From the sequence record NZ_OW849084.1: a stretch of DNA of 40,203 bases, one strand, 5' to 3'. This document shows, in pieces, positions 9,001 through 15,000 of the stretch (its first letter is position 1; each line of letters opens with the position of its first letter). The DNA is from a plasmid. Made by a program: the position numbers.

Positions 9001-12000
9001 TTCCCATCTCCTGAGCCTGATTGCCTAGGTGCTATTCTAAACTCCGTACCAAAGTACGGAATCAAGGAGAAAGTGATGGCCACAGAGCTGACCATTGGCA
9101 AGCTGGCAGACGCCGCCGGGGTGAACGTCGAGACGATCCGCTACTACCAGCGACGCGGGCTGCTGGATGAACCAGCCAAACCCTTGGGTGGCCATCGGCG
9201 CTATCCGGTGGACATGGTGAAGCGACTGCGTTTCATCAAGCGGGCTCAGGCGCTGGGTTTCACGCTCTCGGAAGTCGGTGGACTGCTGACGCTGGATGAG
9301 TCGTGCGCCTGTGCCGAAACGCGAGCACGGGCTGCACGCAAGCTCGCGTTGATCGAGCAGAAGATGGCCGACTTGGTCGTCATGCAGCAACTGTTAGGCG
9401 AACTGGTGCAGCAATGTGATGCGGGAGACGGCGGAACGATCTGCCCGATCATCGAGGCACTGATCAGAGAGTAATGCCTGGCGGGTGAGCTGGAGATCGG
9501 AAAGCCCCTTTACGGTGGGATTCAGAGCTTACGTTGGTTTTTGGTTCCATTGCTCCCCAAACCCCAAGGACAAAGCTACGGTGCGGCTGAATGTGTCCAT
9601 TGGTGGCGGCGGTGTTGAGCTACTGGCGACCGGGCCGAAGTGGTACGACACGCGGAAAGAGCAGGGCGGCGGTGCCATCGACCTGACCATGCACCTGTTC
9701 AGATTGTCATTTGTGGATGCGGTCAAACGGCTGTCGCCTTGATCGTGTTTGCAAGATGCCCCCGGCAGGGCCGCCGGAGGCCACTCGCCGCCGTGAGGCT
9801 CTGGGGGCAGGGTAGCGGTCTTCGCCCTTCGTCCTGCCCCCTTTCTTACCCTCTCAAAACGCGCTGTAGGCCCGTTTCTGGCCGACAACGAGCCGAAGGC
9901 GAGGCGTCAGCACGGTGTTTCACCAAAAACGAGCAGCCGACCGGGCAGCGGTACGTTACGAAAACCGCTCGCATATCGTATCTGTATTGCGTATCATATC
10001 TGTATTGGTACGATTTACGCTGATATGGTACGAAAGGAGCAACGATCATGGCACGTCAGGGCATCACTTTTGAGCAGGTCGCCGCCGTCGCTGATGCGCT
10101 GGCAGGCGAGGGTCAGCAGCCGACCATCCGGGCGGTGCGGGAGAAGCTGGGCGACACCGGCAGCCCGAACACTATTCACAAGCACTTGACCGCGTGGCGC
10201 GAGGCCCGCCCGGTGGCCGCAGCCGCTGCGCCGGAACTGCCGCAGGCGCTGACCGCTGCCATTGCCGCCGAGATCGAGCGGGCCGCATCGCGGGCACGCG
10301 GCGAGATCGAGGGCCGTCTGGTGCAGGCGCAGGCGGAGGCCGCCGAACTGGCCGCCGCTGGCGAGGTGCTGGAAGGCGAACGCGACGAGCTGGCCGAGCA
10401 GGTGGCCGTGCTGACCACTGAGCGCGACACGCTGGCAGGCAAAGCCGCCCAGCAGGCCGCCGACTTGGCCGAGGCGCAGCAGCGCATCGAGCGCGAGCAG
10501 CAGGCGGCAGAGTCTGCCCGGCTGGAGGTGGCAACCGCCCGGCACAAGATCGAGGCGCAGGCCGAGCGCGTGAGCGAGCAGGCCGCCGAGCTTGAGCGCC
10601 TACGCGCCGCACTGGCCGAGGCACAGCAGGGCCGCACCGCCACCGAACAACAGGCCGCCGTGCTGGCCGCCAAGCTGGAGGCGTGCGCCGACCGTGTGAG
10701 CCGCGCAGAGGCCCGCGCCGAGCAGATCGAGCAGCAGGCCGCCAAGGCTGCACAGGCCCACGACACCGCCCGCGCCGCAGCAGCGCAGGAAACCCGGCAG
10801 ACGCAGGCCGAGCGTGACGAGGCTCGCAAGGTGGCAGCAGAGGCCCGCGAGCAGGCCGCACGACTTACCGGGCAGCTTGAGGCGCTGCAACGGCAGCAGG
10901 ACAAAGCCGAGGCCGCCGAGAAGGCCACGAAGGCACCGAAAGGGAAGGGGGGCGAGTGATGCCAAGCGCCGCAGAATTTCAGGCGCTGTCCGATGAGTTG
11001 CGGCAGCTTGGGGCGGTGATCGTGCAGGCTGCGAACCTGGGCGATCAGGAGCTTGCATTGTGGGCCGTGGGGGCGCTGTCATCCGCAGCCGCCCGGCCTG
11101 CATGGTGGGCGAGAGAGGCCGCAGACAGCGAAGCTGTGGGATGCAAATAAAGTCCCATCCTAAGCTACGCCAATTTTCAGGACTGTTTTGAAAGACTCAG
11201 GCTTGGCAGGCGGGTAAAGTGTCATTCTGAAAGGATCGCGTGGCATTGGGCGCGGCCTGAATCGTGAAAATAAAGTCTCATACTTTCGAGCGTCTGAATC
11301 GTCGCCCACTACCGCCGGGACTGAGACACCAACAAGGGGGGCGTATGCCCAAAACCCGAAAACACCTCACCCCGACCGAAGCAGAGGCCAAGGGGCTTCT
11401 ATGCCGTAAGCACCTCAAGGAACGCCTCCGCCTCATGCCGGGACTAAACACCAAGCCCGCTGGCAGTGTCTGGCAAGGTCAGGGGGCTTATGATGTGTAC
11501 AACCCAGCCGAGTGCGTGCCGTGGCGCTGGATGCCTGGGCGTGCCCAAGTCCGTCGCCAGCACGTCGCAGCGCAGGCAAAAGACCTGATCGCCGCAGGCT
11601 GCATTGTGCTCGACACCGAAACCACCGGCCTCGGTGATGACGCCGAGATTTGCGAGATAACCATACTCGACGTGACCGGCGCACCGATCCTCGACACGCT
11701 GGTACGCCCGACCCGGCCAATCCCGGTCGAGGCGACAGCGATTCACAAAATCACCGACGCCATGGTGGCCAGTGCGCCGAGCTGGCCCGAGGTGGCCGAG
11801 CAGTACGCCGCCGCCGTTGCTGGCCGAACCGTCGTTGCCTACAACGTCGCTTTTGATGCGCGCTTGCTGCGGCAGACCTATCAGATACACGGAATCACCG
11901 CGCCAGTGTTGACGACCGCTTGCGCGATGCTGATGTATGCCGAGTGGCATGGAGAGTACGACCGGAGCCGCGACCGCTGGCGATGGTTGAAGCTGATCGA

Positions 12001-15000
12001 GGCTGCGACCGACTGCGGCGTGGCAGAAGACGGCGCACACCGCGCCCTTGCCGACGCCCGCATGACGCTGGGTGTGCTGCGATACTTGCAGCGCCGCACG
12101 AACGGACGGCGACCGGCAGGGCCGAAAGTGGCCACCGTCCCGCAGGAGGCTTTGCCCTCTGTTTTAGGATGAAACTCTATTTCAAAGAATGAGACTTTAT
12201 TTGTACGGATGAATCTTTATTCGCATCCCACACATGGCTTCTAACCACGCTTCGTGCATCCAGAATGGGGCTATTTTTCCGTGCTGAAGTGTGCAAAGCG
12301 GATTGAGCACCCGGCGTGGGTTCTTCCATGTCTCGACGGAGAGCAACAGGCCGTCCGCATGGACGGAAAAGACTGGTAGTGCTTTCGGCTGGCCCTTCTT
12401 CTTGCCTTGCGTTTCGGTTGGCTTGAGGTCGTCCCAAACGCCTTGCACGGTTTTGTTCAGTTCGTCGATGAAGCGTTCCGGCATGGTTTTCAAGAGTTCG
12501 GCAGTGATTGCGTTCGCGTCCTCAAATTGCTTTCTTGCTTCGGCTTCCTTTTTCCGTCGTTTTTGCCGCTCCTGTTCGTATTCGTCTAAGGTTTGCCTGT
12601 GTCTGCGCTGTGCTTCAGCTTCCGCTTCTTCAGCTTGCCTTCGTGCTTCCTCTTTGGCTTTCTGTCGGCGTGCTTCACCCTCTGCTGTGAGTGCTGGTTT
12701 TACCAGTTCGCCAGACTTGGCCTCGATGGTGATCGAAAGCGGTTCGCCGCGATGGTCTACCAGATCGAAAGGCAGACCATCCGCATCGAATGCCGTGAGG
12801 TAAAGATTGGCCCCATAGACCTTGTGCCCCGGCCTCACAGCTTCGTATTTTTCTGCTGCTGCGTGCAGTGCTTCCGCTAGGCGTTCTGCCGTGATTTCTC
12901 CTTTGATCTTGATTCTCATGGCAACCTCCATCCGTAGGTGCCATCCGATGCGGGCTTGACGTAGCACACGCCTTTTTCGACGTACCACCCCGGCCTATCG
13001 CACTTCGCCAAGCTGGCGAGGCTTCCCGTTTGAGCGAAGCGGTAGGCCAAGCGCCCCTCTGGCGTGTTGGCCCATGCCGCCGCCGCTTTCTCGTCCTTGG
13101 CTTCGGTGTATCCCGCGCCGTATCCGGCGCCGTATCCGGCCTGATAGCCCGAATCCTTGCCGCTGCTGTGCATGTACCAGCCGAACAGGCCGACGCACAG
13201 GAAGGCCACGGCGATGCAGCCCGCCGCCCACTGCCACATCTGCTTTGCTGATGTGTTGTGCGCGACCTCTTGCGCTGCTGCTGCTACCGCTTGCGCCAAA
13301 TCCGCCTTGGCTGCTTCCGCTGATGCTTTCACGGTTGCATCCGCCGTTACCTTGAAATTGACCAAGGTATCTTTGGCTGCTTGTGCTATCGCTTGCGGGA
13401 ACTTCTCATACTGGCCTTGGTAGTGTTGCAAGGCCATGAGCACCAGCCACAGCGCATCATTGTTTTTCAGGCCGAGTGCATCCCGAACCCGGTAAAGACT
13501 TTGCCGCTCCGCGTCACTAGGTTGCCTGCCGAGCAGCTTTGCAAAGCTGTCGTCTAGGTCACTCATGGACTACGGCCTCCAATACCTTTTTGGCCTCGTT
13601 GCGCCACCGCGTAAGCTCCGCACGGTTGCCAATGGGCAATTCCTTGAGTGCTACCGCAATGCTCATGCGCTTGCTGTAAATGTCATCGCTCACACGGTCG
13701 GCCATGTCCGGGAATGTCACCGATTTCCCGCCGCGTTCCTCTACCGCCGTGCGCAGCTTGGAGCCGTTGTAAAGCTCGAACTTATTTTCTTCCCCGAAGT
13801 GTCCATTGCGTACCACATGAACATCCGCATTCGGAATTGCGTCCATGTATTCCTTGAGCAGTTCGAGGCTATCCCGTTGGCGGTTAATCACCCACAGCGT
13901 GACCAGCTTCCGCTTGAGTTCTTCAAGCGTGCTATTCAGTGTTTCACCGTAGGCGCTCACGCCCTTGTTATTCCGTGCTGCCGTGTTGATTACCACGACG
14001 CTATCCGGCTTGCTATCGCACAAGTTCACTAGCTGAATCCATCCGTCCGCCTCATCCAGATTGATAAGCTCCGTTTCCGTGCTTTCTTTATAGGCTTTCC
14101 ATACGTCCGGGTTAGAGGTGTCAGACTCAATCAGCAAGACGCTTTCGCCGCGCTCTTGCAGGTAATCAACCGTTGCCATCGTGACAAGCGACTTGCCAAC
14201 GCCGCCCTTGCTGCCACCGATCAGGTAAATGCTTTTCGCCATGTTGCTTACTCCTTAAATGTCGTCGCTGTCAGGTTTCGGGGTGAATGTCGCCTTTGAT
14301 GTATCCGCAGGCTTCTTGACGGCGGGGCGGGGGCGGGGTGTGTCTCCCGGTGCGTGCACCGGAGCTTTTTTCGCTGGCTTTGCTCTCTGCAAGTAGCTCT
14401 TGAGTGTTGGAGTTGCGATGCTCAGACCTTCACCGCGCAGCGTCTCGGAAATCTGGTCAAGCGTGTATCCACGCTTTTGCAACAAGGCGATTTCCTTCGA
14501 GAGTATGCGCACGGCATCTTGCTTGCTGTGCTCTTGCTTCTTTTTCTCGACTGGCGGCATCTCTCGCAGCTTTGCAGCGATAGCCTCTAGCTGTTCTGTC
14601 GTATGCTTCATCGTGCTAACTCCTTTGCTTACTTGTTGCGGAGTTGACAGCATAGCGCCATTTGTGCTTGTTGCAAAGTGCGTCCCGTGCACCTAAACTG
14701 CTGATACGATAGTAGAGCGGATGAGCAATACGGGATGACCGTTGTAACACACATGGCTTCGCCACGTGGTTCCAACGGACGCCTGCCCATTCGGCGCTTC
14801 GCTTCTCACGGTCTGGCTTATCCTGCAAGGGGTATCCCCTTGACCCCGGACAGTGCGGCGCTCTCGCTTCTTACTGTCCAAGACACACCCCGCCCCCCGC
14901 CCCGGCGAGAAGGAGACACGATGCCATTTGAAACGCAGGGGCCGGAACCGCTGGACGCCGTTATCAATGTACGGCTGACCGCAGCGGAGAAGGCCCGCTT

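Follow-up and report, generated by a model that had tools for sequence, protein, structure and literature searches.

An IncP-6/IncG KPC-2 plasmid (NZ_OW849084.1), analysed here as one stretch of 40,203 nt (hereafter, the window), carries between its kfrA and ofxX genes a segment that is known in the literature as the insertion sequence (IS) ISPa19 (PMC4785139, PMC11265224). We conclude that this 1,098-bp segment (11135..12232, + strand) is very probably a miniature, non-autonomous element of the Tn7 family with Tn6411-type ends, its repeats being predicted binding sites for the transposase TnsB. The only open reading frame (ORF) of the element, annotated as tnpA in pRSB105 and in IncP-6 papers and as a 3′-5′ exonuclease in RefSeq, is, judged from its sequence, passenger cargo and not a tnpA transposase gene.

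The element is bounded by Tn7-type arrays

The segment begins and ends with a terminal inverted repeat pair of the form TGTGGGATGC.../...GCATCCCACA (TGTGGG...CCCACA). A repeat finder paired the 26-nt left copy (TGTGGGATGCAAATAAAGTCCCATCC, 11135..11160, + strand, with a 5′-TGT tip) with the right copy (...GGATGAATCTTTATTCGCATCCCACA, 12207..12232, − strand, with an ACA-3′ tip) at 85% complementarity. At each end, an 8-bp tip, TGTGGGAT, stands outside an array of predicted TnsB-type sites, and the two arrays differ in layout. On the left, three sites on the + strand are dispersed over ~150 bp (L1, 11142..11163; L2, 11209..11230; L3, 11265..11286, ~60 bp 5′ of the exonuclease ATG), while three sites on the − strand are contiguous and 20-bp phased on the right (R3, the innermost, 12164..12185; R2, 12184..12205; R1, the outermost, 12204..12225). 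The stop codon of the exonuclease gene lies within R3 and the TAA stop of the converging ofxX gene (ORF end, 12197) within R2.

A preliminary description of this DNA had listed five repeat copies, and both the sequence and the repeat finder place them where it had them: AAATAAAGTCCCAT at 11145 (+), AAATAAAGTCTCAT at 11268 (+) and three 20-bp units at 12166-12225. The latter run head to tail on the opposite strand (12166-12185, 12186-12205 and 12206-12225), the first of them containing the exonuclease TGA (12170-12172). The two upstream copies, described as inverted, are so relative to the downstream set; between themselves they are direct repeats. Three features are new relative to that description: a degenerate copy at 11209-11230, the terminal inverted repeat of 26 nt and the running of both neighbouring ORFs into the repeats.

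Searching the window with a 14-mer at up to 3 mismatches returned 11 matches against 2.4 expected, a number reached in none of 100 shuffles, and all but one of the matches with 0-2 mismatches fell inside 11145-12222. We then scored the window with a weight matrix trained solely on the sites of other elements, namely Tn6411 and a K. pneumoniae relative. Five sites scored between 22.9 and 25.7 bits (L1, 25.7; L3, 22.9; R3, 23.2; R2 and R1, 24.4 each) against a shuffle maximum of 17.5 bits, and the best score elsewhere in the 40 kb, 16.9 bits at 31623-31644, remained below that maximum. So did the sixth site, L2 (GGGTAAAGTGTCATTCT), at 12.0 bits; L2 is thus not significant by score alone and is assigned by its position and by its counterpart, the weak middle site of Tn6411. 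The repeat finder reported the sequence near 11215 to be 93% complementary to R2.

The pattern and matrix scans rule out a generic AT-rich signal of the backbone: across the window the motif is not common, and the copy positions had not been misread. Scans with terminator and promoter consensus sequences gave nothing at the repeats, and no structured RNA was matched in Rfam at E ≤ 0.1. A lone weak match to the site motif lies at 7338-7359 (− strand; CGGGAATAAAATCCCATTCAGA, 14 bits with a window-trained matrix) in the mer/AraC accessory region. The same sequence is found in a K. pneumoniae plasmid (locus L004, 18286-18307), it has no TGTGGG tip, and it probably arose by chance.

The ends match those of transposons that encode TnsA-E

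The right-end 69 bp (12164-12232) are ~90% identical to sequences in large plasmids of Klebsiella, Enterobacter, Citrobacter, Acinetobacter and Pseudomonas, where the match lies directly outside tnsA of complete tnsA-tnsB-tnsC-(tnsD)-tnsE operons (OW848880, MN961671, MH547561 and others). Cognate Tn7-like transposons are present in the same genera as IncP-6 plasmids. The element of this family in p201330-IMP is Tn6411 (PMC11232968), which spans 37,556 bp between CCTAC duplications and has the left tip TGTGGGAGGAAAATAAAGT. Its sites lie at 7113, 7237 and 7292 on the left and, next to tnsA and with 20-bp spacing, at 44593, 44613 and 44633 on the right. TnsB of Tn6411 matched the solved TnsB of Tn7 (7pik) at E = 2.7e-184, and the Pfam domains expected of TnsA and TnsC are present in the respective Tn6411 proteins; at the nucleotide level, the tns genes of Tn6411 are reported to have very low identity to those of Tn7 (PMC11232968).

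Over the whole window, tblastn with TnsA, TnsB and TnsC of Tn6411 gave no match. With no tns genes in the window and an exonuclease as its sole ORF, the element is non-autonomous.

One of the records with the shared end deserves a remark of its own. NZ_MH547561.1, 'plasmid pMKPA34-2' (26,862 bp), stops exactly at the Tn7-like right tip (...GCATCCCACA); it holds Tn6411-like cargo and tnsABCDE, and its listed annotation shows no replication genes. Possibly the record represents a transposon that was submitted as a circular plasmid.

Copies at four other sites are flanked by 5-bp duplications

Dozens of IncP-6/IncG plasmids, among them pRSB105, plasmids of the Rms149 type and KPC-2 plasmids such as pMHW-1, are 100% identical to the window over the 1.5 kb around the element. 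A sensitive BLAST search against plasmids yielded three informative classes of match: pPA-1, pRAS3-type plasmids and the large plasmids with the 69-bp match described above. In P. aeruginosa pPA-1, the match (query 236-1333) corresponds exactly to window 11135-12232 at 97.6% identity, with no differences in sites R1-R3. This copy, with the same boundaries as in the window, lies downstream of the replicase gene (repA) and is flanked by GTTGT on both sides. In a P. aeruginosa megaplasmid the element stands directly after a KfrA_N gene, with an AATGC duplication on both sides. Two further copies, reached via an 89%-identical protein, are flanked by ACAGG (an E. coli contig) and by CATCC (a Logan contig). 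Perfect 5-bp target duplications therefore accompany the element at four other insertions.

The E. coli copy (GCA_051559395.1; locus L136, 2012-3388) measures 1,377 bp against the usual ~1,100 bp, the extra ~270 bp sitting between the first and last left-end sites. A second P. aeruginosa megaplasmid has lost the right tip of its copy: in this DN1 plasmid (locus L007, 16040-16060), which shares its insertion site with the H15 megaplasmid, the right tip ends ...CCCAC and ~300 bp of flank are missing; the deletion starts at the element end, and the third left-end site is also replaced.

A metagenomic copy (positions 57-1166 of locus L137, a contig of European Nucleotide Archive assembly ERZ27275305) lies beside glmS (...NLAKSVTVE*): 25 bp separate its right tip from the stop codon of that gene, which is the geometry of attTn7.

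The same ends also enclose other contents. A genome-wide scan with an 18-mer pattern containing three degenerate positions covered ~600 Gb and gave, as such a pattern would lead one to expect, mostly chance matches, with ~40 left after the matrix filter. In Aquipseudomonas alcaligenes NBRC 14159 (BATI01000012; locus L123, 4104-4431), a cargo-less element of 328 bp shares the TGTGGGATGC tips; it has three TnsB-type sites on the left, two on the right and a GAAGT duplication. In Vreelandella aquamarina 558 (FODB01000057; locus L126, 1958-2812), an 855-bp element of the same end family is flanked by an ACTGC duplication, and its only genes encode a higB-like toxin and a helix-turn-helix (HTH) antitoxin (higB-higA). 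Among the loci with such ends, no full-length relative with the exonuclease beside the left end was found. Since the same ends occur without the exonuclease, the transposase that acts on them would be one encoded outside the mini-elements.

Two insertions lie downstream of genes for KfrA_N-domain proteins, at a distance of 56 bp in one plasmid (locus L006; KfrA_N gene at 7835-8944, element at 9001) and of 175 bp in the window. They are independent, with different flanks and the megaplasmid copy having its own AATGC. A third insertion lies 290 bp after the pPA-1 replicase gene. A preference for targets close to replication and partition regions may lie behind this, or else a coincidence of small samples.

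The cargo is a predicted DEDDh exonuclease under purifying selection

The ORF of the element (11345..12172, + strand) encodes a predicted 275-amino-acid DEDDh (DnaQ/ExoX-like) 3′-5′ exonuclease. As the preliminary description had recognised, the motifs Exo I-III (DTE, NxxFD and HxxxxD) are visible in the translation, and residues 87-244 matched Pfam RNase_T (1.9e-21; 77.7 bits against a gathering cut-off of 24). The best match in the PDB was ExoX (4fzx, 3.7e-11), with PolC-exo and epsilon also matched; further profile matches comprised the DEDD and DnaQ families of NCBIfam, the PHROG "DNA polymerase exonuclease subunit" and DEDDh of PADLOC. No transposase, HTH or DDE model was matched by this protein in Pfam, PDB, NCBIfam, PHROGs or PADLOC. 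The ORF is intact in four diverged copies, and the ratio of non-synonymous to synonymous polymorphism (pN/pS) between copies is 0.24-0.39, so the ORF has a function that is maintained under purifying selection.

Homologues at 65-81% amino-acid identity reside in plasmid backbones next to kfrB/trbI, resolvase, vapBC or ProQ/FinO genes. The expectation that homologous exonuclease genes might carry the same flanking arrays was not borne out, as no Tn7-type sites were found around these homologues, which rules out that the repeats are intrinsic to the exonuclease family. Where an exonuclease gene of 88% identity lies in a TraG/integrase setting on a plasmid (Joint Genome Institute (JGI) metagenome 3300034072; locus L139, 3325-3346), the right end is reduced to its innermost site and ~7 bp of the adjoining one, and neither tips nor a left end are present. 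By its sequence this copy looks like a decayed element.

The element in its IncP-6 context

Gene order around the element is kfrA (10048-10959, Pfam KfrA_N), a backbone ORF of 64 amino acids (orf64; 10956..11150, + strand) and the exonuclease gene, followed by ofxX (12197..12934, − strand), mobE and mobD, which converge on it from the opposite strand. Both ORFs that flank the element are truncated by it, and each ends at a TAA codon within predicted binding sites of the element. The last 4 codons and the stop of orf64 lie inside the element; its 74-amino-acid homologue in Comamonas pZM22-2 aligns only through residue 51. On the other side, the last 11 codons and the stop of ofxX, a backbone gene of the mob module, are element sequence. 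The encoded protein is 98% identical to that of pRAS3.2 ofxX up to ...HEAWLEAM and diverges exactly from the element tip. In line with this, pRAS3-type IncQ-2 plasmids match the window only from the first base beyond the right tip (CATGGCTTCTAACC...). As for an empty site of the IncP-6 insertion, these pRAS3-type plasmids are the outside relatives for the right flank alone, the left-flank orf64 having just the distant Comamonas homologue.

How the element came to sit here is best approached through these flanks, which read GAAGC on the left and CATGG on the right. The likeliest explanation is that one flank was replaced after insertion, whether by recombination between two copies, by cointegrate resolution or by an adjacent deletion. 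By inference only, the element would then sit at the seam where the rep/par/kfrA part of the IncP-6 backbone was joined to its IncQ-type mob part. A more far-reaching scenario, which we offer as speculation and think rather unlikely, is that ISPa19 is the scar of the event that built IncP-6 from a rep/par/kfrA part and an IncQ-2 pRAS3-type mob part, through two mini-Tn7 copies or a TnsB-mediated cointegrate, with the arrays conferring cis immunity against the Tn6411 family and the exonuclease a selectable plasmid-fitness function.

The flanks have one further property. If joined, positions 11130-11134 and 12233-12241 (GAAGC | CATGGCTTC) would form a perfect 14-bp palindrome, GAAGCCATGGCTTC. 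pRAS3.2 reads CGCCTCATGGCTTC at the equivalent place, so that the mob module did not have this palindrome ancestrally; the palindrome may be a chance occurrence (roughly 1 in 1000 per offset).

Weighing the assignment against its alternatives

Several points weigh against the assignment to the Tn7 family or limit it. The window copy has no 5-bp duplication, so that transposition into the exact IncP-6 site is not directly documented, and as the element occupies a single site in all IncP-6 plasmids, no movement is seen within the lineage. Among the copies examined, the only other one that has no matching duplication is the glmS-proximal copy (CCTGC / ACCCC); beyond its left tip the contig continues for 56 bp only, so that the copy could represent a tandem attTn7 array or an assembly chimera. 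The middle left site, L2, is weak (12 bits). According to the end rule of Tn7, an 8-bp tip is followed by 22-bp sites, three separated on the left and four overlapping on the right (PMC9308760); where prototype Tn7 has four partly overlapping 22-bp right sites, the window element has three at 20-bp spacing.

Could ISPa19 instead be a true autonomous IS, with the 275-amino-acid protein as a transposase that acts on the inverted repeats? DEDDh nucleases and DDE transposases share an RNase H-like fold, which would lend this idea some plausibility, as would an ORF that is intact and under purifying selection in every copy. Yet the protein matched only RNase_T/DnaQ/ExoX-type models, its homologues at 65-81% amino-acid identity are ordinary backbone genes without repeats, and elements with the same ends and 5-bp duplications exist that have no exonuclease. 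Moreover, elements with their own TnsA and TnsB genes have ends ~90% identical to these, and the glmS-proximal geometry would need TnsD, all of which makes an autonomous IS very improbable. Slightly less probable still is a role of the arrays as operators, or as a centromere- or origin-like site, recognised by a plasmid-encoded DNA-binding protein such as KfrA, ParB/ParC or a KorB-like regulator. Phased AT-rich repeats in a GC-rich backbone could well suggest this, L3 would occupy a plausible operator position ~60 bp upstream of the exonuclease start, kfrA is the upstream neighbour, and a KfrA_N gene likewise stands just before a second, independent insertion. The motif is nevertheless confined to 11142-12225, with no copy at other promoters (kfrA, par, mob) or elsewhere in the 40 kb, and the arrays travel into plasmids without an adjacent kfrA (pPA-1, after repA) and apparently to a place beside a chromosomal glmS. 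No KorB homologue is present in the annotation of IncP-6 plasmids, and the IncP-6 iterons are an unrelated 17-mer, GCGCCTGCCTTTGAGTA, found at 1484-1517 only (PMC8421773, PMC4785139). The latter region holds two tandem 17-bp copies at ≤1 mismatch; published relatives have 6-14 copies (PMC8421773).

These findings also bear on what the preliminary description had proposed for the repeats. It favoured a protein-binding array over a simple terminator, which is right in the generic sense only. Its operator set for KfrA/KorB/KorC-type regulators finds no support, as the motif occurs at no other plasmid site and moves with the 1.1-kb unit, and neither does its accessory origin, the IncP-6 iterons being a different 17-mer located elsewhere (PMC8421773). 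Its impression that this is not a standard backbone module was well founded, because the module is an inserted mobile element. With the motif found nowhere else on the plasmid, its movement with the unit, the ~90% identity to tnsA-proximal ends and the different iterons, the binder of the repeats is, by sequence comparison, most likely TnsB supplied in trans.

A third alternative concedes the Tn7-derived ends and holds that the IncP-6 copy is an immobile fossil, a fixed joint of the backbone at which the repeats have no current function. The missing target duplication speaks for it, as do the identical position in each of the 60+ IncP-6 records, the lack of tns genes on the plasmid and the dependence of both flanking ORFs on stop codons inside the element. 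Against this stand the integrity of all six sites and both tips, the near-identity to copies with fresh duplications elsewhere (97.6% to pPA-1) and the presence of cognate Tn7-like transposons in the same host genera. We consider a fossil improbable, if less so than the other two alternatives, and retain the miniature Tn7-family element with Tn6411-type ends as the reading that is very probably correct.

Proposed mechanism and significance

A co-resident Tn6411-family transposon would provide TnsA, TnsB and TnsC together with a target selector. TnsB would coat both arrays (six sites) and pair the ends, TnsA and TnsB would cut at the TGT/ACA tips, and the element would be pasted into a new site with a 5-bp duplication. 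By analogy with Tn7, TnsC and TnsD would direct it to the glmS attachment site and TnsC and TnsE to mobile plasmids, and the plasmid copies as well as the glmS-proximal copy would all fit these pathways. TnsB may in addition repress the putative exonuclease promoter region, which overlaps L2 and L3. TnsB binding, mobilisation in trans and target immunity in cis are all inferred here.

Two predictions follow. The element should move only where a Tn6411-type transposon is present, and, extrapolating from Tn7 biology, plasmids that carry it may enjoy Tn7-style target immunity. Among the important vehicles of blaKPC-2 are the IncP-6/IncG plasmids, and an "ISPa19 tnpA" appears on every annotated genome map. 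The re-classification mends this propagated mis-annotation, the "transposase" being a predicted proofreading-type exonuclease. A copy without duplication exactly at a module boundary is furthermore a clue to the assembly of the mosaic IncP-6 backbone, and the finding contributes examples from nature of miniature Tn7-type elements whose cargo is small (an exonuclease or higBA) or absent. No known mechanism is overturned by these findings.

Comparison with known systems

As ISPa19 is an established name in the literature, the mobile nature of the element was already known. The name has been used since Rms149 (Haines et al. 2005, as cited in PMC4785139) and recurs in the IncP-6 papers (PMC4785139, PMC11265224, PMC8421773, PMC10229833, PMC12420198). 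ISPa19 was published as an IS with its own transposase, one ORF and 18-bp inverted repeats, whereas we find a DEDDh exonuclease ORF, 26-nt inverted repeats and, behind these, multi-site Tn7-type arrays. Neither Tn7-family ends nor a dependence on trans-acting Tns proteins nor a cargo status of the ORF is mentioned in the IncP-6 papers that we covered, and the Tn7-like ends may have been recognised earlier. Our finding is a re-classification of a known element, of modest novelty.

With the Tn6411 family, the window element shares 26-bp terminal inverted repeats that start with TGTGGGA, 20-bp units with the core AAATAAAGTNTCATCC, a layout of three sites dispersed on the left and three contiguous on the right and, at its other copies, 5-bp duplications. 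The two differ in size and content: Tn6411 has 37.5 kb with TnsA-E and resistance cargo, the window element 1.1 kb, no tns genes and a different left-end spacer sequence. The ends of prototype Tn7, like those of the window element, have a TGTGGG.. tip and a site core of the AATAAAGTC type; after the core, the site sequences of the two differ. Also common to both are asymmetric left and right arrays and, at other copies of the element, the 5-bp duplication (PMC9308760); the glmS attachment of Tn7 with the right end proximal may have a parallel in the metagenomic copy beside glmS.

On natural mini-Tn7 elements or MITEs (miniature inverted-repeat transposable elements) we found nothing specific in the literature covered, which is no proof of novelty. 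The likeness to laboratory mini-Tn7 vectors and bacterial MITEs lies in transposon ends around small or no cargo and in transposition proteins that act in trans. Unlike these, the window element is natural; its cargo is a conserved exonuclease gene, and it has become fixed in a plasmid lineage of clinical importance.

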